Positions 46,765-64,000 of a stretch of DNA of 64,000 nucleotides are shown one piece after another; the first letter of the stretch is position 1, and every line of letters starts with the position of its first letter. Source of the stretch: Bacteroidota bacterium. GTDB lineage: Bacteria; Bacteroidota; Bacteroidia; Bacteroidales; JAAUTT01. The stretch is from NCBI GenBank assembly GCA_023429135.1, contig JAEYWD010000094.1, positions 66,402-130,401 on the forward strand, written 5' to 3'. A program made the position numbers and the translations under genes. The notes under the pieces are model-generated. The model ran no database searches. It worked only from the letters and a program-made list of their open reading frames with translations, and was not told where the DNA came from.

Positions 46765-48288
46765 TTATTTTAAAAGCCACATTAACTTGTTAATTTCATC
46801 ATATCCTTCATATTGACGATCCAAAGCCTCAATAAGGTTTTCGCGATTATAATTAGTTTCGGAAGACGGATACAGCCAACGCATCGGTATAGCATCCTTT
46901 TTATTCTCGTTTAAACTGGTATTCGGATTAATCGGGAAAACCGGGTATTGATTCCGACGATATTCAAAATAACTGCTTTCTGAATTCTGCATGAAATTAA
47001 GAATATATCGCTGCATCCATATCTGCTTCAGTTGTTCTTCAGGTGTAGCCTTGAAAGCAGCTTCACCCGTAAAATAGTTATTGATATAATTCTGGTCTAT
47101 AGCCATTCCGTGTGCATAACTTGCTTTAGTTGCCATAACAGAAGCCAGGGCTGCTTTAACCCCCGATTCGTAATAGTTTTGTGCTGACCCGGTATTTATC
47201 CATCCCAGAATATAAGCTTCGGCAAGAATTAATTGCTGCTCGGCATAAGTCATCAGCATGCGGGGTTCGCTATCACTTTCCAATAAATATCTTGAATTCA
47301 ACAGTGAATACATATTAGCGCTATGCCCCTGATTCATGACCTCATAATCAATCGATACATCAACACCCACGTATGCAGCCGGATCCGATTGTGTTTTTCC
47401 TCCGGCTATCTGAGCTCCAGCCGGGTCGGCAAAATAAAACAACCGCCTGTCATTAAGTGCTTTCAGGTTGTCTATTAATAAGGAACTGAGAATTGTCCGG
47501 CTTGTAAAAAGGTTATTGGTTCCCGACATTGGATGCATATTGGTAGTAGAATATTTCAACCCTAAATATCCGGTAGAATTTTCAAGGATAAAACCAGAAG
47601 CTACTATTTCGGCAAACCGCCCCTTAATGTTTAATGATGCAACATTCTCTTTTTTACTTAAACTCATCAATACCTTTAGTGCAAAAGCATTTGAAGCTCT
47701 TCGCCACTTTGCCGGATCGCCGTTATATGGTGTTGGATCACCTGAAAACGTAATTCCTTGTGCAAAAAATGTATCTGCCTCTTTCAATTCATTGAGGATT
47801 CCGATAAAAACCTGTTCCTGAGTATCGTACTTAGGGCGGTAATTACCTTTGTCGCCCTGATTGGTTTCGCTGTATGGGATATCACCAACTTCCATTGTTG
47901 TATGATAAAACATATAAGCCCTCGAGAATTTGGCAAGTCCTTTATAAGAATTTTCCATTGTACTCCCTTTAGCATACTCAAGCATTTTATCAATATTGGG
48001 AAGAATTGTCATTATGCCAAAGTCGGTACTTCCGATTTTATTATATTGGGCATTCATTTGACTTTCATTGGCATACCCAATATATTTAGCCAGTGCGTTT
48101 GGCTGAAGGTAGGCAATTGCATCGCGCCCGTTAAATTTGATATTCTCCAGTATCACGCTGGTTGCAACCATGGATGCACTGGCCTGAGTTATGGTATCAG
48201 GATTCTTATTTATTTCTTCAAATTTGTTACACCCAGAGAGCAACAAAAAAGGAAGAACTATACCTGTAAATATTTTCTTTTTATTCAT
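46765..48288 (-). CDS. SusD-like (SusD_like_2 type) outer-membrane lipoprotein
   Basis: The start was moved to the ATG at 48288 ('MNKKKIFTGIVLPFLLLSGCNKFEEINKNPD'). It lies directly downstream of a SusC-type transporter. Confidence 0.75.
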   Translation of the reverse strand: MNKKKIFTGIVLPFLLLSGCNKFEEINKNPDTITQASASMVATSVILENIKFNGRDAIAYLQPNALAKYIGYANESQMNAQYNKIGSTDFGIMTILPNIDKMLEYAKGSTMENSYKGLAKFSRAYMFYHTTMEVGDIPYSETNQGDKGNYRPKYDTQEQVFIGILNELKEADTFFAQGITFSGDPTPYNGDPAKWRRASNAFALKVLMSLSKKENVASLNIKGRFAEIVASGFILENSTGYLGLKYSTTNMHPMSGTNNLFTSRTILSSLLIDNLKALNDRRLFYFADPAGAQIAGGKTQSDPAAYVGVDVSIDYEVMNQGHSANMYSLLNSRYLLESDSEPRMLMTYAEQQLILAEAYILGWINTGSAQNYYESGVKAALASVMATKASYAHGMAIDQNYINNYFTGEAAFKATPEEQLKQIWMQRYILNFMQNSESSYFEYRRNQYPVFPINPNTSLNENKKDAIPMRWLYPSSETNYNRENLIEALDRQYEGYDEINKLMWLLK

Positions 48289-48355
48289 TTTCCAAGTTTT
48301 AAAAAGTAATTGCGACGTGGCACTCAAATATAAGGCGGTGCCAGCCAACATAATG

Positions 48356-51300
48356 TTAAAAATCAAATTTCAGATTGAATCCTATGTAACGCAACGAAGG
48401 ATCACTAAAGTTCTCTGTACCGCCATCAGGATCGGAATACTTAAAATCCTTGGCCCACAGGAAAATATTTTGACCCACAGCCGAAATGGAAGCGCCTTTG
48501 CTGTGAAATTTGGCACAGATCTTTTTAGGTACAAAATACGTAAGTGAAATTTCTCTGAGTTTGAAAAAGGTTGTGCTGTAAACGTCAACCGGAGATGCAG
48601 CGCCTCCCCATGCTGTACCTTTATGCAGGTTCTCTATATACGATTTATAGGTAACGGGCACGCTGTTAGGAGCATAAACCCTGGTATCGCTGGTAATGTT
48701 TCCATAAGTATCGTATGTTGCTGTACCTGAAACAACCTGAACCCCTTTGCCAATATAATTTTTGGTGCCAGGCTGGGTGGCATCCAGGTATCGTTCCGGC
48801 ACCACAGAGTTAGGATGAGATCCGGCACGCCACATATACATTTCAGTAATTGTTTGGGTCAATCCGCCAACACGGCCATCGGCAGATACATTCAGCATCA
48901 GGTTTTTGAATTTCAACGACGAGCTTAAACCCCATATCCAGTCCGGATCGGAATATCCGTATCTTGAATCGTACGCCATGTACAAGGGTAATCCGTTATT
49001 ATAGATTATGTTACCCTGAGGGTCTTTCTGGTAATCGCGCAGTACATAAGCATCGGCTCTTTCACCTTCTTTTACCCAGGGCTTATCGGCCGAATATACC
49101 GAATCGAGTTGAGTATAATACCTGGCATATTTCGACCAGTTTACCGAAATGTCCCAATTCCAGTCCTTCGATCGTACCGGCACCACCGTTGCAGAAATTT
49201 CGGCACCCTTGCGTGTAATCTCCTCATCTATATTAATGTAATTGCTTGTATATCCTGATGCAGGACTAATACCTGCCGATTTTAAAAAGTCGTACATCCT
49301 TTTGTTGTAATAAGCAACATCAATGGATACCCTGTTCTGATACAGGTTAATCATGGTACCAACTTCGAAAGTTGAAGATGATTCAGGCAGTACATCAGTT
49401 CCCCGGATAACAGTAGGGTAAGTTGCCGAACTCAGAGTACCCCAGACATTGTTTGTAATGGAAAAAACTGAATTGATATCGTATATTCCGGCAGGCATCT
49501 TAACAGAAACCCAGGACCCTCTTAACTTCCATAAAGAAAGCCATTCCATTTTAGGGAGTAATTCCGAGACAACAAAGCTTCCCGATAATGAAGGATAAAT
49601 GTAGGAGCGAGTTGATTCGGGCAAAGTAGAAACCCAGTCGTTACGCAAAGTACCTTCGGCAAAAACCATATTTTTCCACGATACCCCCATACGTCCGTAA
49701 ACACTGTTCACCTGCCTTTTATATATATTTGAGGCAACATTCAAAGGGTCGACTGAAGCTTTTAACGAATAAAAAGCTGGTACCGAAAGCCCTCCTTTTG
49801 TTCTTGTTTCAATTCCTTCGTCCTGGCCGAAGTAAACAGCTCCCCCAATGAATCCTTCAAGAATAAAATCGCTTAACTTTTGATTGGCCGATAATATAAA
49901 ATCGTTATTGATACTGTAGCCTCTGCTTAAACCAAGATTATAGGACCCTTTTTGCGACTCTCCCCATATTTGTGTACCATTAGGAATTACTACTGCACTT
50001 CCGGCTCCCTGAAATGAACCCTTGGAGATTTTGACTTCCTGCCTGTCGCTATAAGTATCGTAACCAGTCCTTAAAGTTGCTTTTAACCAGGATGCAAATT
50101 CATAATCCAAAGATATTGTACCATTTAGAATATCTTTATTTACACTGTGAGTTCTCTGGTACCGGTCGAAATAGGGATTGTTATTACCGGCAGTATAACT
50201 GGAATTCTGAACTTCGTTCGGAACCAGCCAGTAATCCTTGTATTGCCTGATGTCCCAATCCGGAGCCGACCAAATCAGCAGTGAATACATAGGATCGTAA
50301 CCAGTATATCCGTTAAATCCTTTATGAGGTGAAAAATGTTTGTTATATGCCATACTGGACGACAGCGTAAACTTGTTAATTTTTATATCGCCACCTATGC
50401 TATAAGTTATTTTATCGAAAATTGAGTTAGGGTATTGACCTTTGTTTTCGACCCATGTGACTGAGGCGCGTAAACTGCCGAATTCACCTTGCTGTACGGC
50501 GCTAACATTGTTGTTTAAAACAAACCCCTGTTCCAGAAAATTTTTGAAATTATCTTTTCCAATAGGTAGATAAGGCATCGCTTTTAGCGACTTTGAGACA
50601 GGATCCCATTGAATAACTTCCCGCCCGTCGAGCGGAATACCCCAAGCCCCATCGGCAGAACGTGCATAAGTATTGGTAGCGGTATTAACAACACGGCCAT
50701 AGGTCGACTGCATTTCGGGAATGGCAAGATATCCGGCAGCAAACATAGTACTGCTGTTCAATGAAACCGACAATCCTTTACTGGCAGTACCTTTACGCGT
50801 GGTGACCATAATTGCACCGCTGGCTCCCCGGTAGCCATAAAGTGCAGATGCGGTGGCTCCTTTCAAAACACTGATGTTCTCAATATCATCCGATGGGATA
50901 TCGCGTAAACTCATATTACCGTACGGAACACCATCAATAACCAATAAAGGGTTCTCTCCCCTGATCTGAATGCTCGGTTCTGAAGTAAACTCAGTACTGT
51001 TTTTAACCATAAGACCGGAGACCTTTCCGGTTAACGATGTAGCTACATCCACACCTTTCACTGTTGTTAAATTGTCTCCTGTAACTTTTTGAACAGAGTA
51101 TCCAAGAGCCTTTTCACTTCTTTTGATGCCCAACGCCGTAACAACTACTTCATCGAGTGTTTTAATTTCGGGAACTAACCGAATATTAATATTTGCCTGA
51201 TTAGCAATTATTCTTTCACTAACGTACCCGATAAAAGAAACCAGCAATACTGATTTATTGTCGGGTACATCAATTGAATATTTGCCATTCACGTCCGAAA

Positions 51301-51703
51301 TAACACCCGTTGTTGTTCCTTCTAATACGATATTGGCTCCGATAATTGGCTCACCTGTTGCAGCATCGGTAATTATACCCGATACTTTTTGTTGCTGGAG
51401 TGTATAAGGGGAAATAACAACAATGTTATTTTCGAGGACCATATACGATGCCGAGGTTTGTTCAAGCAGCATCTTCATAATTTCCTTCAGGGAGGAATTC
51501 TTAACATTAAATGAAACCATCTTGTCAAGAATCTTAAAATCGTCGGAATAGAAGAAGCGGTAAGATGATTTACTTTCAACCATTTTTAATACTTCTTTAA
51601 CGGATACCTCTTCAGCCAGAATATCCATTTTGATATCCTGAGAGTAAAGCGAAGCAGATACTTGCAAGGTGGTTAACAGTATTAGCAGAAATGATAGTTT
51701 CAT
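48356..51703 (-). CDS. susC: SusC/RagA family TonB-linked outer-membrane transporter with N-terminal STN signalling domain
   Basis: The preferred start is the ATG at 51703 ('MKLSFLLILLTTLQVSASLYSQ'); the track's alternative is 51769. The domain order is STN-like ('VSVKEVLKMVESKSSYRFFYSDD...NNIVVISP'), CarboxypepD_reg ('VSGIITDAATGEPIIGANIVLEGTT'), a plug ('VVVTALGIKRSEKALGYS') and a barrel ending 'IGFNLKFDF'. Confidence 0.9.
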   Translation of the reverse strand: MKLSFLLILLTTLQVSASLYSQDIKMDILAEEVSVKEVLKMVESKSSYRFFYSDDFKILDKMVSFNVKNSSLKEIMKMLLEQTSASYMVLENNIVVISPYTLQQQKVSGIITDAATGEPIIGANIVLEGTTTGVISDVNGKYSIDVPDNKSVLLVSFIGYVSERIIANQANINIRLVPEIKTLDEVVVTALGIKRSEKALGYSVQKVTGDNLTTVKGVDVATSLTGKVSGLMVKNSTEFTSEPSIQIRGENPLLVIDGVPYGNMSLRDIPSDDIENISVLKGATASALYGYRGASGAIMVTTRKGTASKGLSVSLNSSTMFAAGYLAIPEMQSTYGRVVNTATNTYARSADGAWGIPLDGREVIQWDPVSKSLKAMPYLPIGKDNFKNFLEQGFVLNNNVSAVQQGEFGSLRASVTWVENKGQYPNSIFDKITYSIGGDIKINKFTLSSSMAYNKHFSPHKGFNGYTGYDPMYSLLIWSAPDWDIRQYKDYWLVPNEVQNSSYTAGNNNPYFDRYQRTHSVNKDILNGTISLDYEFASWLKATLRTGYDTYSDRQEVKISKGSFQGAGSAVVIPNGTQIWGESQKGSYNLGLSRGYSINNDFILSANQKLSDFILEGFIGGAVYFGQDEGIETRTKGGLSVPAFYSLKASVDPLNVASNIYKRQVNSVYGRMGVSWKNMVFAEGTLRNDWVSTLPESTRSYIYPSLSGSFVVSELLPKMEWLSLWKLRGSWVSVKMPAGIYDINSVFSITNNVWGTLSSATYPTVIRGTDVLPESSSTFEVGTMINLYQNRVSIDVAYYNKRMYDFLKSAGISPASGYTSNYINIDEEITRKGAEISATVVPVRSKDWNWDISVNWSKYARYYTQLDSVYSADKPWVKEGERADAYVLRDYQKDPQGNIIYNNGLPLYMAYDSRYGYSDPDWIWGLSSSLKFKNLMLNVSADGRVGGLTQTITEMYMWRAGSHPNSVVPERYLDATQPGTKNYIGKGVQVVSGTATYDTYGNITSDTRVYAPNSVPVTYKSYIENLHKGTAWGGAASPVDVYSTTFFKLREISLTYFVPKKICAKFHSKGASISAVGQNIFLWAKDFKYSDPDGGTENFSDPSLRYIGFNLKFDF

Positions 51704-51928
51704 AGTCAGGATTAAATATTTCAATCCTACAGGTATACAAATAGGATTACAATTACGATTTATTTTCATAATTTTACGTCAGTTTAGTTATTTAAATAAT
51801 TGAACATGAACCCCCATTCCACGGGGTTTCTCAACGGAAACGAATTGGGCCGCAATCCCGATTCGTTTTTTTATTTTTAGTATTATGTGACCATAGGCGT
51901 TTGTTTTTAGGTTATTAAAGAGTATATG

Positions 51929-53035
51929 TTATTGATAAAATCTCATTAGTAAGTTATTATCCTGCTCAATATTGATGATCCCTTTCTCAATTTTATATTT
52001 TAACGGGATAGTATGTCGCATAATTACCATAACCTGTTCAATGGTTTCATTTTCTATAGAGCCAGAAAAATGGAATTTCTTTATTGAATCGGAAGCAAAT
52101 TGAATTTTAATATTATACCTTCGTTCCAGATCACGGGCCAGATCTCCAAGTTTTTGTTTTTCTATAACCCATCGACTGTCTTTCCATGATGTAAAAAGTT
52201 CAGTTTTTACCTGTTCGGTTTTTGTAACCGGGGCAGATATATCATTAGCTTCAGGTAACTTTTCTTCAATTTTGTCGTCGGCACTATTTTTTTTCTGGAC
52301 GGTTCCGGTATTATCTTCCTTTTTATAATAAGTCACCGTTTCCTTGGGTTTCATTTCAACCATAAATTCTCTGTCACGACTGTCTTTTCCTTCGATCACC
52401 ACTTTCCCTTTTTCCAGGGTGGTTACAATGGAGGCATCTTCAGGATAAGCCTTTACATTAAATTTAGTTCCCAAAGCCTTTATGTTAATTTTTCCGGTTT
52501 TAACCACAAATGGTTTTGAAGGATTGGTAACAACGTTGAAATACGCCTCCCCGGTAAGTTTCACTTCCCTGCTTTCAGCATTATAGCTTTCATCGTAAAC
52601 AAGTTTACTTCCACTATTTAGCCATACTTTGGTACCATCAGGTAATGTGGCGACAGCCCTTGAACCAAGAGTAGCCTCAAACGCAACTGTAGCAGGAGAA
52701 AGCTTATTTGATTCAGATAACTGATTATACAAAACAACTCCTGAGATTACTGCTAACAAAAGGACTGCAGCAACTTTTAATGTCAGATTCAAAACATTGC
52801 GTTTAACACCCTTGCTTTTGAGTTCTCTTCCTTTCCCGTTTTGTGAATTTGCTTCCAAAGTTAATGGAGAAATTTGGGAGGAAGCTAACCAGATAGTACG
52901 TATAGAATTGAAATAAGAAAGATTTTCGGTGGATTCAGCCAACCATTCCGAAAGATGTTCGCTTTCAAGAGGTGTTGTTTCGCCCGCTAAAAACCGGATA
53001 ATCAGGTCTTCTTTATCAAACGGCAAATTTTTCAC
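51929..53035 (-). CDS. FecR family anti-sigma factor
   Basis: 368 aa with one TM ('LKVAAVLLLAVISGVVLY'), the FecR domain ('EVKLTGEAYFNV') and a C-terminal signalling domain. Confidence 0.85.
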   Translation of the reverse strand: MKNLPFDKEDLIIRFLAGETTPLESEHLSEWLAESTENLSYFNSIRTIWLASSQISPLTLEANSQNGKGRELKSKGVKRNVLNLTLKVAAVLLLAVISGVVLYNQLSESNKLSPATVAFEATLGSRAVATLPDGTKVWLNSGSKLVYDESYNAESREVKLTGEAYFNVVTNPSKPFVVKTGKINIKALGTKFNVKAYPEDASIVTTLEKGKVVIEGKDSRDREFMVEMKPKETVTYYKKEDNTGTVQKKNSADDKIEEKLPEANDISAPVTKTEQVKTELFTSWKDSRWVIEKQKLGDLARDLERRYNIKIQFASDSIKKFHFSGSIENETIEQVMVIMRHTIPLKYKIEKGIINIEQDNNLLMRFYQ

Positions 53036-53106
53036 AGTTAAAAAAGTAATTATTTTTAACTATGACGTAAAACAAATATCAACGGTCTACAAGGATGGTT
53101 GAAATT

Positions 53107-53679
53107 TCATAAATATTTTTTTAATTCTTCCTGCAACTTATGAATTGCTCTTACCATTTGGGTTTTCACCGTACTTAGCGACAAAGAGAGCTTTTCGGAT
53201 ATTTGCGGATAACTAAGCTGTCCGAACCGGCTCAAAATAAATATTTCTTTGCACTGGGGAGGCAGGTGATCAATAGCCTGCTTTATCCTGGTTTCAAGAT
53301 CATCAGAAAAATAAAAATCAAAGAAATGATTGTCCTCTGTTATTTCAAATATTTTTAACCGAAACTTAGAGTCGTCATACGAAATTGCCTGGATATCTTC
53401 TCTGGCTTTGTTATTTCGTAGAAAATCAATACATGCATTGTGGACCGAACGATAGAGAAAGGATTTTAATGAAGTGGTAATATTTAAATTTTCACGCATA
53501 TTCCATAATTTTAATAATACTTCCTGAACAGTATCCTGAGCATGTCCGGTATCATTAATTATGCTTTTGGCGTAAATTGTCAAGGGTTGAAAATATAAGC
53601 GGATTAACATGCTAAAAGATCGTTGATCTCCAGCAATCAGGCCTCTTATAATTTCAATATCCCCGTGTTCCATTACCAA
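53107..53679 (-). CDS. ECF-type RNA polymerase sigma-70 family factor
   Basis: 190 aa. Region 2 ('DTVQEVLLKLW') is followed by a region 4 HTH ('CKEIFILSRFGQLSYPQISEKLSLSLSTVKTQMVRAIHKL'). Confidence 0.85.
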   Translation of the reverse strand: MVMEHGDIEIIRGLIAGDQRSFSMLIRLYFQPLTIYAKSIINDTGHAQDTVQEVLLKLWNMRENLNITTSLKSFLYRSVHNACIDFLRNNKAREDIQAISYDDSKFRLKIFEITEDNHFFDFYFSDDLETRIKQAIDHLPPQCKEIFILSRFGQLSYPQISEKLSLSLSTVKTQMVRAIHKLQEELKKYL

Positions 53680-55466: not shown

Positions 55467-55739
55467 TTAGTATTTTCCGAATATCTCCATCATCCTTCTT
55501 CGAAAATCTTTCTTATCAGGATTATTGAACAGTTGCTGATGCAAGCTCTCCAATTCCTCTTTCATTTTTTTACGGTGGTATATCTTCACAAGCCAATAGG
55601 TTTTCTTTTGAAGTTCTACATCGCTCCGTAGACCGGTGTTGACTTTCAATCGTGAAGCGAAAAGCATCCGGTTCCAGGGACTAAGCTTTCCGGCAAGATA
55701 TTGCTCAATAGTTTGAGTATCATTCAACGAAGTCTTCAT
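55467..55739 (-). CDS. small hypothetical protein, possible cognate partner of the upstream sigma factor
   Basis: 90 aa. Its start overlaps the sigma-factor gene by 20 nt. 'IEQYLAGKLSP' resembles the N-termini of small anti-sigma-like proteins in Bacteroidota. The function is an inference. Confidence 0.45.
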   Translation of the reverse strand: MKTSLNDTQTIEQYLAGKLSPWNRMLFASRLKVNTGLRSDVELQKKTYWLVKIYHRKKMKEELESLHQQLFNNPDKKDFRRRMMEIFGKY

Positions 55740-56268
55740 AAGCCAGCGATTTTTGTTTTACAATTTCCCTTACTTTTTCGAGACATTTATACTTTTGCAC
55801 ACTTGCCGAGTGCTCGTTTGCAAATCCCAATGACTTTACAATTGTTCTGATACGCTGCTGCTGATAGTAAAAAGCGCGTAACAGATCCAGACACCTCTTG
55901 CCGGCACGTTCCAGATACATCAGCAGTTTTTGAGTCTTTACAGGCACTTCGTAATCCTCGGGAATGCAAATTTGCAGTTCTGTTGCCGATAGAGAAACCA
56001 TTTCTGCTCCCACTCTGAATTTACGCATCCAGAGATGTTTTGCAATGCCAAGAATGTAGCCATTGCGGTTTAACAGATGTTCCCGTTGGTTCATTTCCAT
56101 GTAAATAACGAGGGCATCGTGAAATATATCTTTAGCGTCGTCGAGGTCTCCTCCCATTTTCTGAACAAACCGGGCCACCACCGGAAAGCACTGCTCGTAC
56201 AAAGCTTCCATACTGCTGCTGAAAGCCATTGTCTCCTTTCCTGTTTTTTTAATCTCCAGCGTTTCCAT
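55720..56268 (-). CDS. sigma-70 family (ECF-like) RNA polymerase sigma factor
   Basis: 182 aa. Region 2 ('DAKDIFHDALVIYME') is followed by region 4 ('CLDLLRAFYYQQQRIRTIVKSLGFANEHSASVQKYKCLEKVR'). Confidence 0.7.
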   Translation of the reverse strand: METLEIKKTGKETMAFSSSMEALYEQCFPVVARFVQKMGGDLDDAKDIFHDALVIYMEMNQREHLLNRNGYILGIAKHLWMRKFRVGAEMVSLSATELQICIPEDYEVPVKTQKLLMYLERAGKRCLDLLRAFYYQQQRIRTIVKSLGFANEHSASVQKYKCLEKVREIVKQKSLAYEDFVE

Positions 56269-56445
56269 AATCGTCCTTTTTAATATGTGCCGGCAAGCAT
56301 TAAAATATCACCAATAAAAACATATTTTTTTCAAAATTAGTTTAAAATAGTTTTCCGGTTAGCATCTTACCAATAGAACAATCCCTTGTTGAAAATTTTA
56401 ATTTTTATAATTTAGCACCATTTGGCAACGACATACATTCTTAGC

Positions 56446-57111
56446 ATGAAACAACTGTTCCTGTTCTTTCTCATTTTTCTAGCCACTACAGCTTTCTCCC
56501 AGAACTGGAAAGAATACATTATCGACGATAATCTCACACTTACTTTCCCCGAAAATTACACCATTACCGATACTATGAACCAGAAAGTAATTATGGCTCA
56601 GCTTGATTATGGACTGGTAATGGTTACTGCTATGGAAAACAAAGGGGAATATGAAATAGCTGTAACCGATGAGAACGATCTTAGAGATGAATACAAAGGG
56701 CTCCGTAAAGGAATGCTCCGGTCGGCAAAGGGGAAATTAATAGTCGAAGGACCGTTAAAAAAGGACGGACTGTTATTCTGGAATTTCTCATATTCCGCCC
56801 GAATGGGCGAAGCTAAGCAGAGCCGCTATTGCCGGATCCTGCTGTTGAATAAACATATCTATACAATCAATTTCTGGGAAGTGAACGACAAATCGGGCGA
56901 AATGGCTCCGCTACGCGAAAAGTTTTTTTTGTCGGTTGTGGTTCCGAAAGGGATTGGATTGCAAAATCAATTGAATGTGATCGATGAGAAAACCGCCTCC
57001 GATCGCGTGGGCAAACTGATCAGCAATTTAGCAGTTAAGCTGCTATTCGGAACCATCGTAATTTTACTGGTAGTTTGGGTTTGGCGAAAGGTCAAAAAAC
57101 AAGCAAAATAA
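56446..57111 (+). CDS. hypothetical protein with N-terminal signal and C-terminal TM anchor
   Basis: The start is set at the ATG at 56446 ('MKQLFLFFLIFLATTAFSQ'). The C-terminus is 'LLFGTIVILLVVWVW' followed by a basic tail. Confidence 0.5.
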   Translation: MKQLFLFFLIFLATTAFSQNWKEYIIDDNLTLTFPENYTITDTMNQKVIMAQLDYGLVMVTAMENKGEYEIAVTDENDLRDEYKGLRKGMLRSAKGKLIVEGPLKKDGLLFWNFSYSARMGEAKQSRYCRILLLNKHIYTINFWEVNDKSGEMAPLREKFFLSVVVPKGIGLQNQLNVIDEKTASDRVGKLISNLAVKLLFGTIVILLVVWVWRKVKKQAK

Positions 57112-57318
57112 ATTATAACCCCTCGGGAAGACTACTGAACTTCATTTCCTTGCTCATGAATTTTAAAGGATGAGTTCAAAATCATTTATTGAAATTTTGT
57201 TCGTAAGTGCCACAACCGGACGTGAAGTTTCCTAAAAGTATTGAAATCCCTTTTTATCGAGAGTAATTTTATAGAATAAAAGTCGGTCTTTAGGTCATCA
57301 ATTTCCAAAACCTATTTT

Positions 57319-57741
57319 ATGAAAACTAAAATTCTATTTGTTACTTTTCTGTTGGCTGCATTTGCATGTGGCATAACTGCCCAAAGCCTTCAAAAAGGAA
57401 ATTTGGTTGGAGCGCACACTATGAAACTCACATTAAAGCCTGGTGTAACCGAAAAACAGTTCATCGACTTTTTTAACGAAAAATACAAACCGGCCTTTAA
57501 CAAAGCTATACCCGAATGGCAGGTATTCCTGGTAAAAAGCATCAGGGGAGAAGTTCCCAAAGATACCTATGGATTAATTTATGTAATTAAATCGGTTCAG
57601 GACCGTGATAAATTTTATAATACTGACGGTACTGAATCATCATTTGGAAAAACTGTAAGGGAGAAGCTTAAACCCATTTTCGAGGAGTTTGACAAGATTT
57701 GTACTTTTGAAACAGTTTATACTGATTGGGAAGTATTATAA
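57319..57741 (+). CDS. small secreted hypothetical protein
   Basis: 140 aa with the signal 'MKTKILFVTFLLAAFACGITAQ'. A hairpin, CCCGGA-N8-TCCGGG at 57768..57787, follows the stop. Confidence 0.5.
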   Translation: MKTKILFVTFLLAAFACGITAQSLQKGNLVGAHTMKLTLKPGVTEKQFIDFFNEKYKPAFNKAIPEWQVFLVKSIRGEVPKDTYGLIYVIKSVQDRDKFYNTDGTESSFGKTVREKLKPIFEEFDKICTFETVYTDWEVL

Positions 57742-57947
57742 TTGTTGCTGTAAGTTGTTTTTAGGAGCCCGGAGGATTTCTTCCGGGTTTCTTGTCCGAT
57801 GTTTCCACCAGGAGTATTTAATAACCTTAAGAATGCCATTTTAACCCTGGAAATATCAGGATGCATAATTTGCGAAAAATTTAGGATAGTTTTGAACAAA
57901 ATATTTCATAATTGGTTTACAACAAACCAATATTAACCCCAACCAAA

Positions 57948-58712
57948 ATGAGCCTCAGTTACCTTGAATTTATCAAGCAACATTCTCTGGATGCCCGAAT
58001 TGGCATTAACCCGGAGATTGGACAATTTGTGCTCGACAACAAAGTGAAAACCCTTTTTGGATACTTCCCTTTTGGGTATTATCTGTTAGATTACCATACC
58101 CAGAAATTCGAATTCATAAACAATTCGGAATCACTGCTTGGATACACCATGGACTACTTCCTATTGGGAGGCTTGCCTGCATCCCTTAAAAATTTTCATC
58201 CCGACGACTTTGTAATCTTCTCGGAAAAATTGTTTCCCGATATTATTAAGTTTTTTTCCGAATTAAGGTCCGACGACAGGGACTACTACCGTGTAACGTA
58301 TAATTACCGGTATAAAAAGAAGGATAGAACCTATATCCACCTGCAGCAACATTCAACTTTTACCGATTTTAACCTGTTAAATCTCCCGACCCGGAATTTT
58401 GCTTTAATAAATGACATTTCGGCCTGCAAGCGCGATAACGCGCTGGTGCTTACCATTACCCGTGTTAAGGAAGGAAAGGAAATGTTAGTTTTACAAAAAC
58501 GGTTTAACCACGAAAAACCTTCGATTTTCACTGACCGCGAAAAAGAAATTCTGGATTTAGCAATGAAAGGTTACACCGGAAAGGAAATAGCCGGCAAATT
58601 GTTTATTAGCCTCAACACTGTACGAAACCACAAACAAAACATGATGGAAAAAACCAACACCCCTAACATTGCAAGCCTGATAGATTACGCTTTTAAAAGC
58701 GAAGTAGTTTAA
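57948..58712 (+). CDS. LuxR-family transcriptional regulator with N-terminal PAS-like sensor domain
   Basis: The ATG at 57948 is preferred over the TTG at 57912. The C-terminal LuxR HTH is 'FTDREKEILDLAMKGYTGKEIAGKLFISLNTVRNHKQNMMEKT'. The N-terminal roughly 190 aa has the size of a PAS/GAF-type sensor. Confidence 0.7.
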   Translation: MSLSYLEFIKQHSLDARIGINPEIGQFVLDNKVKTLFGYFPFGYYLLDYHTQKFEFINNSESLLGYTMDYFLLGGLPASLKNFHPDDFVIFSEKLFPDIIKFFSELRSDDRDYYRVTYNYRYKKKDRTYIHLQQHSTFTDFNLLNLPTRNFALINDISACKRDNALVLTITRVKEGKEMLVLQKRFNHEKPSIFTDREKEILDLAMKGYTGKEIAGKLFISLNTVRNHKQNMMEKTNTPNIASLIDYAFKSEVV

Positions 58713-58984
58713 CTATTTACTTTCCGGGAGACAGGTAAACCTTAGTTACTGTAAACCAGGGAGGCTTATCGTGGCTTCATATTGGGCATTTGGTATCCAA
58801 ATAAACAGCCGTTTCAGGTAATGAGCAGGTTGGTAGCAAAAGATTGTAAGTGAGTTGTGATGAGAAGTAAAGATAGTACAAAAGGACTATTTACCTCCCT
58901 TCTTTTTAAAGGTAAATTTATGCTATTAATTACTCTCACTACATTCAAAACAAATCAAACTCACCTGAATCTATTTAAAACCTT

Positions 58985-61900
58985 ATGCTCCGAACTATTC
59001 AATATAATTGTCAAAGTGGCGAGCCTTTCAAAATTGACGAAACTGCGGATTTGTTAATTATCCGAACCTTAAAATATACTGATCCAGATTATATCCTGAA
59101 AACAATTCCTGGAATAAAGGCCTTCTGGAGAAATATCAGAAAACATGACCAATTTCCTGATTCTTCAGTTTTTTTATATCAAATTGTCGAAACCACCGAA
59201 CCTTCCTTACTTAGAGATGAGCTAAAGAACATTATAGAAAAATATAACCACCCCAACATATGTTATGCAGGCACAGTGATGCGTTATGCCGATTCCGGCG
59301 TTTACCAGATATATACCGGGAATCTCTTTATAAAATTTCAGGATAGCGCGTCCACACATTCCATAAACAGTATTATCCGTAATCACAAACTGGATGTTAA
59401 AAGAGATCTTCCCTTTGCAAGGAACTCCTTTTTTGTTGCGCCTCACGATGATATAGGAAGGGACATCTTTGATCTTAGTATGGAATTGCTCCGGTACAAA
59501 GATGTATCACACTGTCATCCGGAATTAGTTGTAAAAAGGAAATATGTTTTCAGGAACATCCCGGTAGATACAAATACTGCATCCAAAATTCCTCAAAATT
59601 GGGTTTTTGATAAGATAAACCTTAATAAAGCCTGGAAATATACGAGAGGTGAGAATATCCGTATTTGTGTAATTGATGACGGACTAGACTTTGGCCATCC
59701 TGCGTTCTCAAGCTCAGGTAAAATTGCGGCATACAGAGACATGCTGGATTCTACCAAAACCAAAAAACCTGTGCATCACACGGGGGAAATGCATGGCACA
59801 GCTTGCGCAGGAATAGCATGTTCAAATGATTTTCGTGCTCCAGGCATTGCCCCGGGGGCACAACTTATGCCCGTAAGATCGGTTGGTTTGGGGTCAGTAA
59901 CCGAATCGGAAGCCTTTTATTGGGCAGTACAAAATAAAGCGGATATTATTTCCTGCAGTTGGGGACCTCCTGATGGAGATTTTACATCTAACAAAAAGAA
60001 TAATTTTGTTTATCCCATTCCCGATCATACTGATTTTGCTATCCGTTACGCTGCCACAAGAGGCCGGAATGGAAAAGGATGTCTGATTTTCTTTGCTGCA
60101 GGCAATGGGAATGAGAGCATTAAACTGGATAAGTATGCTTCGCATCCTTATGTTATGGCAATAGGAGCCTCAAATATGAATGATGAAAAAACAAGCTACA
60201 GTGATTACGACAGTCCTATTTTTTGTACATTCCCAAGTGGCGAATATGTTAACGACGGAAAAGGATGGAAACAGATTAACGGAGTAACGGTACCTGACCC
60301 AACAGGTAAAGATGGTTATGACGATACTGATATTTTTAAACTTTTCAGCGGTACTTCGGCATCCTGTCCCGGAATGGCCGGAACCGCAGCATTACTATTA
60401 TCTCTTCGTCCGGATTTAACACGCCTTCAGGCAAAAGATATTCTTTCAAAATCATGCAAACCTCTGGGTAAATCTATTACCTCAAATTTAAGCACTTATG
60501 ATGACCAATTTGGGTTTGGTTTAATCCAAACAGATCTAGTAATTCAAAACGCTCTTAAATTTAATAAAACAGCTATGGATAACGAAAGCAAAACACAGAC
60601 TAAGGGGTATTCCCTTCACATTGGTATTAATGAGGTATCTGCGGAATATTACGGAGATATTGTGCCAAAACTTTACGGTTGCATTAAGGATATGCAGAAA
60701 ATGAAATCTTTAGCCGTAAAGTTGGGATATCAAACCAAAACATTGGAAAATGAAGCTGCAACCAGTAGCAGAATTCTTGACGAAATAAAGTCACTTTCCG
60801 AAACGGCTAAACCGGGCGATATGGTCCTCATAACCTATGCAGGTCATGGTGCACCTATTATTGATGAAAACAATGATGAGCCCGACGGATATGATGAAGC
60901 GTGGGTTACTTATGATGGTTTTCTGATTGATGATAAAATTTATCAATCGTTTCAGGAATTTAAAAAAGGTGTAAAAATTCTTGTGGTTACTGATTCGTGC
61001 CATAATGGAACGGTTACGAGACTAGTAAATTTTAATAAGTATAAAAAAAGATCCCTAAGAGGAGATATCAGGTACAGGTTCCTTGAGCTGGATTTGGTAA
61101 ACCAAATTCTTAGCAGGAATGGTCAAACGCAGCGGTCGTTAAAAATTACGGAAAAGAAAAAGGACAAAAGCTCTAAAACAGGGCAGATAGAACTGAATGT
61201 GCCTGTTAAGTTATTGGCAGCCTGTGCTGATGACCAGGTTGCAGGAGAAAATCAAAATGGAGGGCTTTTCACATATCACCTGATTGAAACATTCAATAAT
61301 TTTAACAATTCGATCACCTATACAAGTCTGATTGATAACGTCAAAACCAGGATGCCCTCTAGTCAGCAACCTCAAATAACTGACGAAGGATTAACTGACA
61401 ATGAATTTGATGCTTTAATGGCCTTTTCGATAGAAGCATCGAGGAAAGAACATGAAATACTGCAAGCAGAAATACCTGTTGTTGAATTAAAAAGATCTTC
61501 AATAATTGCGGTGGAAACCGATGAAATGTTTCTTAATTTAAGTTCTTCGTCGAGCCTCCGGTCTACCGGTCCTGAAAATTCAGATGTACTGAAAGTGGTA
61601 GATGGAAAAGTTGACGGAGAAAGTATAGCTGGTGAAACAGATTGGGATAAAGCATACAATCTATATTTTTCGAATCAGGATAAAAACATTGAATTTATTG
61701 AAGCTTATTTACCTCCTGAATCCTACGAAGATAGATTTTATGCAGGAAGGGACACTGAATTAAAGGAATCGGATGAATTTGACTGGCTAAAAACATATCC
61801 TCCATACAGCGATATCCACAAAAATGTTCCATTTGACTGGCACCTCGACAATGAGCATAGTCAGCTTAAAGCTGCCAGGGAAATAGTCTATCCTGAATTA

Positions 61901-64000
61901 ATAACCGGAGATACTTACGATAAAAGTAAGCCTAACGTATATATTGCACATATCGATACCGGAATTCTGGAAGACCATCCTTCGAAGCCCGAAAACCTGA
62001 TTCTGAAAGTTACTGCCGATAATGATACAATAATTACAGGAGCTGAGGATAAAGATGTTATTACCCCGGGAGAACAGCAGGGACATGGTAATGCCACGCT
62101 GGCTATTCTAGCCGGTGGAAAATTAATGGGAACACAAACTGGTGGCGAATTTTCCGGATATTTTGGAGCTATCCCTTTTGCCAAAGTTGTTACCATTAAA
62201 GTTAGCGATTATGTTGTGTTACTTAGCGGAAAAAGAGTTGCTGAGGCAATTGAGTATGCTATTACTCTTGGAGTGGATGTTATAACCATGAGTATGGCAG
62301 GTTTACCTTCCAAAGCAATGGCCAAAGCTGTAAATAAAGCATATGAAGCCGGCATTGTTATTTGTAGTGCTGCCAGTAACAGTTGGGTTAAAGGGTTAAA
62401 AAAGGCCGCACCCGACTGTATGCTATATCCGGCAAGATTCGACCGAACCATAGGGGTGGTGGGAGCAACCTATACTCAGGTGCCGTATGTTTATAAACTT
62501 CATAATACCGAAACCCGAACCGCAGGTGGCTGTTATATGCAAATGAGTTATGGCCCCAGAGCTGCAATGAATACTGCCATTGCCGGGTACACTCCAAATA
62601 TTGCATGGTTTGAAGTTGATATGAAAAAAGAAAAAGGTAAATTGCCATTCGTTAAAAACGGAGGAGGAACATCAAGCGCTACACCACAGGTTGCGGCGGC
62701 GGCAGCTCTATATATTCAAAAATACCGGGACGAAATTGAAAAAATAGCTGGAAAAGACAAATGGAAAAAGGTTGAAATTGTAAAAGCAGCTCTTTTTAAA
62801 TCAGCTCATAAATTGAACGATTATTCCGAATTTTATGGTAACGGAATTCTAAGAGCCAAGAATGCCCTCATGATAGAACCTAAGGATATTGAACTTCCTA
62901 AAGAAAAGGCACCTGAGGCAAAAGATGAAGGATCTTTCCTCAAAAGCTTATTTTTTGTTTTCAGAAGAAGTTTAATTGACAATCAGCACGACCAGAAGTT
63001 GACTCAAATGATGAACACAGAATTGATGCAACTGATGCATCGTGAGCCTGAATTATTCCCGCTGTTAAAAAATTACAATTTTTCGGACCCGAAAGAGGAA
63101 CTTACTTATGATGACAGGATACTGCTGATTGATGTTGTTCAGAGATCCAAACTCGCATCTTCTTTTTTGAAGAGTAACATTGTAACGAAAAAAATGCCCG
63201 ATTCTCCTGCTATTACAAGAGGAGTAACCATCGATTCGTTTCACATTAACAGCCTGGAACTGGAATCGCTATACGGAAATTATAACCTCAGAAGCTCAGG
63301 TATTAAATATGTAATTAAATCATTTAGAAAAAATATCGGGGAAGAGAATTTCAATCTGGATCTATCTGTTGATGAAATAGAACTAGAAATAAACGGTCCT
63401 TTAACCAGGGACGCGAATACCTCACTCAACCTGATTACGAATTTCACGAAAAATGACCGTCAGTGTGCAATCCTAGTTGAAAAGGAACTGGATGGAGAGA
63501 CTGTTGCCGAGTGGGTGTTTGACCAACCAATCCAAAATCAGACCTCCCGGGATTTCAGTTTTAACCGGAACGGGCGTGATGGAAATCAGTTTACAATTGA
63601 TTTTAGTGATCACCTCCCGAATACTAACCGAAATCTGTTCTCCAAAATCGGAAAAGTATTAATCAAAGTTATCAGTTGGTTGTCGCCGCAGGATGAGCAA
63701 GCAGGCAATTTTAAAGAATGGCTCGCCCGAATGGGAAAATCCAGATACATGGTAATGGGATATGATTTGGAAAGTTCAACAAATAGATGGATCAATCTGG
63801 ATAAAAAGGCCGAAATGTGGGATGCCATCTCAAAAGACAGTAAACCCGTTTTACTCCTGTTCCCGGGGCTATTCAGAGATGTAACCGAGAACTTCACCGA
63901 TCTTCTTTCCAATTCTGCAATTCTGGAGGCTTTAAAAAATAAGTACTCCCGTTATGTAATTGGATTCAATATGCCCGATATAATCGCAGGTATTGAAGAA
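58985..64000 (+). CDS. leaderless multi-protease fusion protein (propeptide-like N-terminus / peptidase S8 / caspase-like peptidase C14 / peptidase S8 / unknown C-terminal region); 3' end lies outside the window
   Basis: This ORF is absent from the supplied track. Frame 2 is open from the ATG at 58985 (in-frame TAA at 58976..58978) to base 64000, giving 1,672 codons. S8 domain 1 has D 'CVIDDG' (59675), H 'HGTACAG' (59792), N 'AAGNGN' and S 'GTSASCPG' (60356). The C14 domain has H 'YAGHG' (60845) and C 'DSCHNG' (60998). S8 domain 2 has D 'AHIDTG' (61955), H 'GHGNAT' (62084) and S 'GGGTSSATPQVAAAAA' (62672). All these codons are in the same frame. There is no N-terminal hydrophobic signal. Confidence 0.85.
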   Translation, partial: MLRTIQYNCQSGEPFKIDETADLLIIRTLKYTDPDYILKTIPGIKAFWRNIRKHDQFPDSSVFLYQIVETTEPSLLRDELKNIIEKYNHPNICYAGTVMRYADSGVYQIYTGNLFIKFQDSASTHSINSIIRNHKLDVKRDLPFARNSFFVAPHDDIGRDIFDLSMELLRYKDVSHCHPELVVKRKYVFRNIPVDTNTASKIPQNWVFDKINLNKAWKYTRGENIRICVIDDGLDFGHPAFSSSGKIAAYRDMLDSTKTKKPVHHTGEMHGTACAGIACSNDFRAPGIAPGAQLMPVRSVGLGSVTESEAFYWAVQNKADIISCSWGPPDGDFTSNKKNNFVYPIPDHTDFAIRYAATRGRNGKGCLIFFAAGNGNESIKLDKYASHPYVMAIGASNMNDEKTSYSDYDSPIFCTFPSGEYVNDGKGWKQINGVTVPDPTGKDGYDDTDIFKLFSGTSASCPGMAGTAALLLSLRPDLTRLQAKDILSKSCKPLGKSITSNLSTYDDQFGFGLIQTDLVIQNALKFNKTAMDNESKTQTKGYSLHIGINEVSAEYYGDIVPKLYGCIKDMQKMKSLAVKLGYQTKTLENEAATSSRILDEIKSLSETAKPGDMVLITYAGHGAPIIDENNDEPDGYDEAWVTYDGFLIDDKIYQSFQEFKKGVKILVVTDSCHNGTVTRLVNFNKYKKRSLRGDIRYRFLELDLVNQILSRNGQTQRSLKITEKKKDKSSKTGQIELNVPVKLLAACADDQVAGENQNGGLFTYHLIETFNNFNNSITYTSLIDNVKTRMPSSQQPQITDEGLTDNEFDALMAFSIEASRKEHEILQAEIPVVELKRSSIIAVETDEMFLNLSSSSSLRSTGPENSDVLKVVDGKVDGESIAGETDWDKAYNLYFSNQDKNIEFIEAYLPPESYEDRFYAGRDTELKESDEFDWLKTYPPYSDIHKNVPFDWHLDNEHSQLKAAREIVYPELITGDTYDKSKPNVYIAHIDTGILEDHPSKPENLILKVTADNDTIITGAEDKDVITPGEQQGHGNATLAILAGGKLMGTQTGGEFSGYFGAIPFAKVVTIKVSDYVVLLSGKRVAEAIEYAITLGVDVITMSMAGLPSKAMAKAVNKAYEAGIVICSAASNSWVKGLKKAAPDCMLYPARFDRTIGVVGATYTQVPYVYKLHNTETRTAGGCYMQMSYGPRAAMNTAIAGYTPNIAWFEVDMKKEKGKLPFVKNGGGTSSATPQVAAAAALYIQKYRDEIEKIAGKDKWKKVEIVKAALFKSAHKLNDYSEFYGNGILRAKNALMIEPKDIELPKEKAPEAKDEGSFLKSLFFVFRRSLIDNQHDQKLTQMMNTELMQLMHREPELFPLLKNYNFSDPKEELTYDDRILLIDVVQRSKLASSFLKSNIVTKKMPDSPAITRGVTIDSFHINSLELESLYGNYNLRSSGIKYVIKSFRKNIGEENFNLDLSVDEIELEINGPLTRDANTSLNLITNFTKNDRQCAILVEKELDGETVAEWVFDQPIQNQTSRDFSFNRNGRDGNQFTIDFSDHLPNTNRNLFSKIGKVLIKVISWLSPQDEQAGNFKEWLARMGKSRYMVMGYDLESSTNRWINLDKKAEMWDAISKDSKPVLLLFPGLFRDVTENFTDLLSNSAILEALKNKYSRYVIGFNMPDIIAGIEE

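Follow-up and report, generated by a model that had tools for sequence, protein, structure and literature searches.

A giant gene at the end of the window

The DNA analysed here (hereafter the window) is a stretch of 64,000 nucleotides from contig JAEYWD010000094.1 of a Bacteroidota bacterium (assembly GCA_023429135.1), and its end is occupied by a gene for a giant protein in which three proteases and a lipase/esterase-like hydrolase lie on one chain. A TAA at 58976-58978 is followed, with two codons between, by an ATG at 58985 and by 1,672 sense codons which run in frame 2 to the last base of the window. A stop-free run of this length is expected by chance with a probability of about 1e-51 (local base composition, stop probability 0.068 per codon). 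The open reading frame (ORF) had been proposed in an earlier note made from the letters of the window (the original prediction), and translation confirms its start, the preceding TAA and the codon count, while the nine catalytic motifs quoted there all occur verbatim. It is missing from the ORF list that accompanies the window because, as had been supposed, this listing omits ORFs crossing the window edge; within the span of the gene the list holds antisense ORFs of 80-100 residues only. For the sequence beyond the window, 25.7 kb of the 248-kb metagenomic contig that carries the gene (locus L001) were used. The extension which the original prediction had called for places the stop codon 741 nt past the window end and gives a complete gene of 1,918 codons (L001:10001-15757). 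A search of a protein collection returned the same 1,918-residue protein (P0001, 100% identical to the window translation), of which the window holds the first 87%.

From the N-terminus, the order of parts is a tandem ferredoxin-like pro-domain, a kexin-like subtilase (S8-1), an orthocaspase-type C14 protease, a linker, a second subtilase (S8-2), a helical/β-sandwich region and a DUF7379 hydrolase (Table 1). About 85 homologue clusters share this domain order (30-56% identity, 1,800-2,050 residues, almost all from Bacteroidota), and their source names are limited to "S8 family serine peptidase" or "hypothetical". All conservation counts given below for the giant proteins refer to an alignment of 75 full-length members, in which the residues of the four catalytic sets are fully or almost fully conserved. 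Pfam recovers Peptidase_S8 in two stretches (1.6e-58) and Peptidase_C14 in one, just as the original prediction expected, and the invariance of the catalytic residues bears out its view that one apparently cytoplasmic chain combines three protease modules of two clans, all of them active to judge from their sequence. It did understate the architecture, which comprises four hydrolase modules, not three.

Table 1 Features of the giant gene, its product and two adjacent genes. Coordinates are those of the window unless a locus is given; pLDDT, predicted local distance difference test; AF2, AlphaFold2.
Feature	Nucleotides	Residues	Strand	Basis or remark
Giant gene, first 1,672 of 1,918 codons	58985..64000	 	+	Translation; identical full-length protein P0001
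N-domain, two tandem ferredoxin-like β-α-β-β-α-β units, propeptide/chaperone-like	58985..59542	1-186	+	AF2 pLDDT 83
Basic tripeptide K184-R185-K186, candidate autoprocessing site	59534..59542	184-186	+	K/R frequency 0.83/0.64/0.87 in 75 homologues
S8 module 1, kexin/furin/mirolase-like	59648..60517	222-511 (Pfam)	+	Pfam, PDB matches, conservation
C14 orthocaspase-type module	60602..61432	540-816	+	Pfam PF00656 1.5e-23
Variable linker	61433..61834	817-950	+	Poorly conserved, one conserved element
Conserved linker element	~61643-61705	~887-907	 	Consensus of homologues
S8 module 2	61835..62884	~951-1300	+	Pfam, NCBIfam, PDB matches, conservation
Helical bundle and β-sandwich	62987..63844	1335-1620	+	AF2 pLDDT 75
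R1475	63407-63409	1475	 	Conservation
R1549-G1550	63629-63634	1549-1550	 	Conservation
DUF7379 start, lipase/esterase-like α/β-hydrolase	63851..64000	1623-1799+	+	Pfam PF24096 2.2e-23; cut by window end
Small PA-IL/LecA-like gene	L001:15711-16136	 	 	Outside window; overlaps giant stop (L001:15755-15757)
LuxR/GerE-type regulator gene, upstream	57912..58712	 	+	Neighbour only, not conserved with giant gene

The protein modules and their relatives

The N-domain was modelled by AlphaFold2 with a 25-sequence alignment, and in the model residues 2-28 already form strands of the folded domain. A Foldseek search returned generic tandem ferredoxin-like folds and one compact high-probability match, 3wqb_B (probability 1.0, root-mean-square deviation of 2.6 Å over 89 columns), which is ORF2, an external chaperone that resembles a propeptide and serves the kexin-like serine protease of Aeromonas sobria (ASP). 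Pfam searches of the three unannotated segments, the N-domain included, gave nothing credible at E <=10. The basic tripeptide which closes the domain comes directly after the invariant P179-E180 and ahead of a disordered segment (residues 187-194, pLDDT <50). In S8-1, the catalytic residues D231, H270, N374 and S458 are all invariant; the module has the Asp-His-Ser order and the oxyanion Asn of peptidase S8, scores 198.8 bits with PF00082 (cut-off 21.8), and finds its best solved relatives in mirolase, kexin and furin. The unit made of the N-domain and S8-1 (residues 1-525) has more than 570 relatives that are stand-alone proteins of 550-740 residues, found in Cyanobacteria, Actinomycetota, Acidobacteriota, Planctomycetota, Burkholderiales, Nitrospirota and Chloroflexota. 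The one such relative tested (L024) ends in a P_proprotein domain (3.3e-13), whereas Pfam finds no match in the giant to the P-domain of the kexin/furin group S8B (PF01483) after S8-1. Since the domain is present in the stand-alone relative and absent from the giant, S8-1 is kexin-like by descent but is without the domain that defines S8B. Taken together, the ORF2-like fold, the basic junction, the kexin-like stand-alone relatives and the matches to kexin, furin and mirolase structures lead us to read residues 1-186 as the pro-domain or intramolecular chaperone of a kexin-like zymogen, presumably cleaved at its basic processing junction. For a cut after paired basic residues, the specificity of S8B enzymes, this K/R-K/R-K/R junction is an indirect indication only. 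The stand-alone proteases lack signal peptides and occur at more than 570 loci in many phyla with heterogeneous neighbours (L020-L081, e.g. L024:10004-11992); some of the Bacteroidales copies have a GlcNAc-2-epimerase-like gene directly upstream and a gene for a 145-residue protein directly downstream.

The C14 module scores 84.2 bits with PF00656 (cut-off 21.4) and keeps the His-Cys dyad as H621 and C672, both invariant. C566, D569 and D670 are invariant as well, and from metacaspase structures we take them to be candidate acidic S1-pocket residues for a basic P1 (Arg/Lys). GSU0716 (PDB 3bij) matches the module over the whole chain (4.6e-44). The 2012 survey of caspase architectures in prokaryotes makes no mention of subtilases in the portions that a term search covered. 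The linker that follows contains a conserved element, "WDKAY...I.FVEPD", which may be the remnant of a propeptide for S8-2. This second subtilase corresponds to the second PF00082 stretch, has an invariant triad and Asn (D991, H1034, N1132 and S1230), and is matched by PDB subtilisins over residues 1056-1161. Its stand-alone relatives (residues ~880-1470) lie in "S8 family serine peptidases" of 1,030-1,240 residues on rhizobial and other plasmids. Three of them (L089-L091; NZ_CP006991.1, NZ_CP104968.1 and NC_011758.1) each have an overlapping, tightly coupled hypothetical gene downstream, and the Methylorubrum one is found beside SIR2, AAA-ATPase, 3'-5' exonuclease and DUF2235 genes and an insertion sequence element. 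The generic PADLOC models "subtilase" and "caspase" both match the window protein. Its NCBIfam matches (mycosin, QhpE, PrtP and EACC1-type caspase) are all sub-threshold, so that it does not qualify as a mycosin, the S8 protease of type VII secretion systems (TIGR03921, 156.5 bits against a curated cut-off of 278.75). Nor does it belong to IetAS, IetS being matched only at E = 0.0044 with no conserved ATPase neighbour in L001 or in a survey of 110 neighbours.

Beyond S8-2, the model of residues 1335-1620 shows a part with four helices, and a β-sandwich in which some nine strands can be counted. Neither a profile search of the PDB nor Pfam gave any sequence relative for this region, and Foldseek against the PDB returned only weak MATH/TRAF-like β-sandwich matches for residues 1335-1625 (probability <=0.63, E >=0.016), which were not accepted as a fold assignment. 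Two of its loops (residues 1517-1523 and 1545-1552) have a pLDDT <50. R1475 and R1549 are each a single conserved Arg, followed by Ser/Gly or by Gly, within hypervariable, gap-rich loops. The former is Arg in 72 of the 75 giants and is conserved in 64 of 150 stand-alone relatives. The latter is Arg in 71 giants and Lys in 3 more, and in the stand-alone DUF7379 family it is kept in 142/150 sequences, with G1550 kept in 137/150. R1549 falls within a loop of pLDDT <50, about 75 residues upstream of the hydrolase. A solitary conserved Arg-Gly pair in a variable, presumably exposed loop just ahead of this enzyme is how a P1-P1' activation site would be expected to look, which makes R1549-G1550 a candidate for one.

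Only the first ~50 residues of DUF7379 are inside the window, and its triad (S1696, D1842 and H1877) lies beyond it. The domain scores 83.7 bits with PF24096 (cut-off 33) and has the nucleophile-elbow Ser together with the Asp and the His; S1696 is invariant among the giants and the other two are conserved in at least 90% of them, while the stand-alone relatives keep the three residues in 149/150, 150/150 and 150/150 cases, respectively. The hydrolase region of the relatives co-matches PGAP1, LCAT, Palm_thioest, DUF676 and generic Abhydrolase families, and some relatives are named "esterase/lipase family protein" by their sources; DUF7379 is thus probably an α/β-hydrolase of the lipase, esterase or thioesterase type. 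It also contains the sole strongly hydrophobic stretch of the giant (residues 1758-1776, mean Kyte-Doolittle value 2.06), which could serve the hydrolase as a lid or for binding to a membrane.

The N-terminus of the giant is hydrophilic and carries no signal peptide, and the homologues start at the same residue and align from residue 1. The original prediction had called the protein leaderless, and in the sense of lacking a signal peptide this holds, as is also borne out by the shared start and by the modelled folding of residues 2-28 into the N-domain. In four full-length members Pfam found neither a Por_Secre_tail nor any other export domain, and the giant has neither the signal peptide nor the C-terminal sorting domain of a protease secreted by the type IX secretion system. 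Considering the hydrophilic and folded start, the colinear homologues and the lack of an export domain, the giant is most likely cytoplasmic.

The C-terminal modules are also found outside the giants. A profile search with residues 1335-1918 returned 5,442 representatives at E <=1e-3 (553 at E <=1e-30), most of which are about 500 residues long and consist of the β-sandwich and DUF7379. In all six contexts examined of such a stand-alone gene, each on a different contig, a gene for a CHAT protease (637-961 residues) lies immediately upstream on the same strand, the two genes overlapping by 4 nt at the closest and being 283 nt apart at the most; the organisms include, by their source names, metagenome-assembled genomes (MAGs) of Saprospiraceae, Chloroflexi, Ramlibacter and Krumholzibacteria. 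The two-gene operon is seen at L082-L088 (e.g. L082:4067-7509 and L088:3052-6482), in some cases with overlapping stop and start codons. Pfam found no export signal on the partner CHAT proteins. Twenty other large DUF7379 proteins among the top matches were compared, and 17 of them prove to be fusions with CHAT (12) or C14 (5), in either domain order, for instance P0193 (C14, DUF4384 and DUF7379). One CHAT partner carries TCAD7, one fusion carries TPR-S, and one DUF7379-CHAT relative has a weak SAVED_CHAT match in PADLOC. A separate giant architecture, with two or three DUF7379-type domains and CHAT, is represented by P0134 (2,357 residues; three DUF7379 copies and CHAT), P0135 (2,374 residues) and P0160 (1,857 residues; DUF7379, a second α/β-hydrolase, CHAT and TPR-S). 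On this comparative evidence, the evolutionary coupling of DUF7379 to caspase-family proteases is strong.

A pairing of this kind has been noted before. In passages of a computational study of VMAP ternary systems (Kaur, Burroughs, Iyer & Aravind 2020, eLife; PMC7159879), a caspase-superfamily domain is described as "always" occurring with a neighbouring α/β-hydrolase gene, and the two are said only to "operate together"; the same group counts α/β-hydrolases among the effectors that hydrolyse membrane lipids (PMC8195603). The module of a caspase-family protease and an α/β-hydrolase is present in fused form in the giant, and in the operons and fusions of its relatives. The original prediction did not recognise the architecture as a characterised one, and no paper describing the four-module family was found in the literature searched, nor one mentioning DUF7379 or an experimental one on a caspase-family/α-β-hydrolase pair. 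The novelty does not extend to the C14 and DUF7379 core, which is a fused form of the pairing in those passages (PMC7159879), so that the core logic is a previously predicted one. As far as the literature searched goes, neither the fusion S8-C14-S8-DUF7379 nor CHAT+DUF7379 as a free-standing operon appears to have been described, and the same is true of the conserved Arg-Gly loop and of the PA-IL-like partner (see below).

Distribution and gene neighbourhood

The closest relatives of the giant protein come from Flavobacteriales and related MAGs. Among 185,579 species (one genome per species), about 18 full-length loci were found, all of them in Bacteroidota (Flavobacteriales, Cytophagales with three Dyadobacter, Chitinophagales and Saprospiraceae), and with so few, scattered loci the gene is rare and its distribution patchy. 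Viral contigs yielded no relative of the giant, which counts neither for nor against the function proposed below. At one locus (L093:1608-12893) the giant gene and its small partner are flanked on either side by a gene for a tyrosine integrase with Arm-DNA-bind_5 domains, an arrangement which suggests an integrative mobile island, and at another (L092) the giant gene is followed by that of a KAP-family NTPase. A natural split variant (L018:9326-14062) consists of two ORFs with the break exactly at the boundary between S8-1 and C14; one codes for the N-domain and S8-1 (687 residues), the other for C14, S8-2 and the helical part (885 residues), and the β-sandwich and DUF7379 are absent.

ORF clustering over the 18 full-length loci identified a small protein of 128-162 residues as the sole conserved neighbour. 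Its gene is present in 11 of 21 full-length loci (the 18 and three more), mostly abutting the giant gene on the same strand, either upstream or downstream. The profile of this protein matches PA-IL/LecA-family lectins in the PDB (6ygq, 5.7e-4; PllA, 3.4e-3), and Pfam PA-IL is just sub-threshold. The PA-IL/LecA-like proteins (~130-140 residues) share an invariant N-D...Y.NN.G motif, which may correspond to the Ca2+/sugar loop of LecA. Kinship with the giant's own β-sandwich, its N-domain or its helical region was considered and rejected (hhalign probability <=0.3%). With this gene overlapping the stop codon and a fourth, lipase-like domain completed downstream, the expectation that something relevant lies just beyond the window proved correct. 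The partners which the original prediction had in mind were gasdermins and NTPase-linked caspase systems, and this part was not upheld: Pfam shows no conserved gasdermin or NTPase partner in L001 or the other loci, and no bacterial gasdermin (bGSDM) is among the PADLOC matches of the 110 neighbours, in which STAND or AAA NTPases do not recur either. Patatin was likewise discarded as a conserved partner, having been found by Pfam in 4 of the 110 neighbours; two candidates were located, of which only one (L003) abuts the giant gene.

Within the window, four ORFs without a significant Pfam family lie at 55467-57741, between the ClpP gene and the LuxR-type gene. Two are on the minus strand (90 and 182 residues, the latter with a weak σ70 region-2 match) and two on the plus strand (229 and 140 residues). 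A minus-strand cluster typical of Bacteroidota is found at 46765-53679, with genes for a SusD-like protein (46765-48366), a SusC-like TonB-dependent receptor (48356-51769), a FecR anti-σ factor (51929-53035) and an extracytoplasmic function σ factor (53107-53679).

Proposed function and known systems

The original prediction proposed a proteolytic-cascade effector, which is a reasonable, though conjectural, reading of the sequence. In our opinion the chances are about even that the giant is a cytoplasmic single-chain four-hydrolase, a fused and enlarged form of the widespread two-gene module of a caspase-family protease (CHAT/C14) and β-sandwich-DUF7379 with its predicted role in conflict or cell death, in which a zymogen cascade arms the hydrolase. 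The giant would be made as an inactive zymogen, and a trigger would let S8-1 free itself from the N-terminal pro-domain at the basic junction (residues 184-186), whereupon the proteases could process one another. The C14 protease, if specific for Arg/Lys, or one of the S8 proteases would then cut the exposed Arg1549-Gly1550 loop in the β-sandwich, which would release or unmask the hydrolase for an attack on acyl-ester substrates, e.g. membrane lipids. The role of a sensor, a regulator or a substrate may fall to the small PA-IL/LecA-like protein, whose gene accompanies that of the giant at about half of the loci. A bolder version is doubtful: a self-contained S8 -> C14 -> S8 cascade, triggered in the cytoplasm, would arm a built-in lipase-like executioner at the Arg-Gly loop, and thousands of CHAT+DUF7379 operons would depend on cleavage of the same kind.

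Several observations weigh against the armed-hydrolase proposal. Apart from the small protein, no conserved neighbours were found, the flanks of the loci being heterogeneous housekeeping genes for metabolism and the envelope (Pfam and PADLOC, 110 neighbours). A defence-island context was looked for and rejected, as PADLOC returned only generic matches among these neighbours (OmpA to ZorB, IscS-like proteins to DndA/SspA, a σ54 activator to RtcR) and single Shedu-like and PDC matches; as far as PADLOC and these neighbours go, the defence-locus check called for by the original prediction came out negative. MoxR, vWA and VMAP occur neither in L001 nor among the 25 most frequent of the 134 Pfam families in the 110 neighbours, so the locus is not a ternary system, and PADLOC v2 holds no models for the CHAT partner, DUF7379 or the small protein. 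A full second pro-domain ahead of S8-2 was also rejected, since the match that hhalign gives between the conserved linker element and the end of the N-domain (its final helix and strand) is in register but lacks significance (P 0.008, probability 5%). The Arg-Gly loop could be structural or regulatory instead of a cleavage site, the substrate class of DUF7379 is drawn from weak co-matches of its relatives, and no experimental study of any family member was found in the literature searched. It is the missing defence-island context and the lack of an experiment that keep our confidence near even, and the conflict or regulated-cell-death role itself is one that we infer.

It is fairly unlikely that the proteases are the real effectors, cleaving proteins of the cell or of an invader promiscuously in the way described for prokaryotic caspases, with DUF7379 and the β-sandwich as a regulator, scaffold, membrane anchor or substrate recruiter that the proteases do not turn into an active lipase. 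All three protease sites are intact, the hydrophobic stretch of DUF7379 could tether the protein to a membrane, and those passages (PMC7159879) say no more than that the two "operate together". Against this, the near-complete conservation of the Ser-Asp-His triad (149-150 of 150 relatives) argues for catalysis over a purely structural role, and proteins with two or three DUF7379 domains and one CHAT fit an effector role better. The ordinary metabolic and envelope flanks without a defence-island signal would rather suit an intracellular housekeeping or developmental processing machine, which would combine regulated proteolysis with deacylation of cell substrates and have no part in conflict, and the stand-alone relatives of S8-1 in many phyla also have housekeeping-looking neighbours. 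We nevertheless hold it to be unlikely: with ~18 species representatives the distribution is very patchy and most relatives lack the gene, contrary to what one would expect of a housekeeping function, one copy lies in an integrase-flanked island, and DUF7379 is associated with the conflict-system domains CHAT, TPR-S and TCAD7.

The remaining explanations fare worse. The colinear N-termini of the homologues, the window protein without a signal peptide and the four full-length members without a type IX C-terminal domain make it very unlikely that the giant is a secreted or surface-bound degradative multi-enzyme, exported by a non-classical route for nutrition or for attack on other cells. C14 and CHAT proteases are, moreover, typically intracellular, and the partner CHAT proteins are without an export signal by Pfam. 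What speaks for secretion is that Bacteroidota secrete many large S8 proteases, that some S8-1 relatives are fused to peptidoglycan hydrolase or tyrosinase domains, and that the lectin-like small partner could bind glycans. Maturation of a ribosomal peptide natural product, by analogy with the PatA/PatG or QhpE subtilases, is suggested by weak NCBIfam matches of S8-2 to QhpE (2.1e-12) and PatA/PatG (0.014). It is most improbable, as these scores are far under the curated cut-offs, and the neighbour surveys show no conserved gene for a precursor, a cyclase, an oxidase or a transporter in the vicinity.

If the armed-hydrolase mechanism is true, the giant would provide a one-gene model of caspase-family control over an enzymatic effector in bacteria, with an explicit candidate cleavage site at Arg1549-Gly1550 and four separable catalytic knock-outs, and it would offer a function for DUF7379 and for the CHAT+DUF7379 operon (thousands of representatives). 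The parallel between prokaryotes and eukaryotes in protease-driven cell death would then reach beyond gasdermins. The bolder version, if true, would amount to a bacterial counterpart of the caspase cascade that ends in an enzymatic membrane-destroying effector, and to a new, widespread class of protease-activated hydrolase systems for cell death or immunity across bacterial phyla. Even without a conflict role, the union of a probable cytoplasmic zymogen of the kexin-like kind with both an orthocaspase and another subtilase would make the giant an unusual subject for protease biochemistry.

Among known systems, the stand-alone bacterial kexin-like subtilases (N-domain, S8 and P_proprotein) are 35-40% identical to the giant over residues 1-525, where the giant has C14 and all downstream modules in place of the P-domain. 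Its N-domain resembles the fold of ORF2 in the ASP/ORF2 pair (PDB 3wqb), although ASP is secreted and the giant has no signal peptide. Orthocaspases and metacaspases (GSU0716, 3bij; MaOC1) have the same His-Cys dyad as its C14 module, in which the conserved acidic residues are candidates for a pocket like theirs; the module differs in having a subtilase on either side and a hydrolase on the same chain. In the type III CRISPR-associated CHAT/caspase systems (SAVED-CHAT, Craspase), caspase-family proteases act in an immune cascade to which the one proposed for the giant may be likened, the giant being without a CRISPR, SAVED or cyclic-oligonucleotide component. The protease-activated gasdermin systems of bacteria and fungi use the same protease families (C14/CHAT and S8), and there the protease frees a membrane-damaging effector from its inhibitory part, which is the logic proposed for the giant; the giant loci surveyed have no gasdermin gene, and their putative effector is an α/β-hydrolase, not a pore former. 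The passages concerned on VMAP ternary systems (PMC7159879) describe neither the free-standing CHAT+DUF7379 operon nor the S8-C14-S8-DUF7379 fusion, and the giant differs from these systems in having the pair fused in one chain with two S8 proteases and a pro-domain. They are like it in their obligatory coupling of a caspase-family protease and an α/β-hydrolase, and TCAD7 and TPR-S, the domains defined in that work, also occur with relatives of DUF7379.

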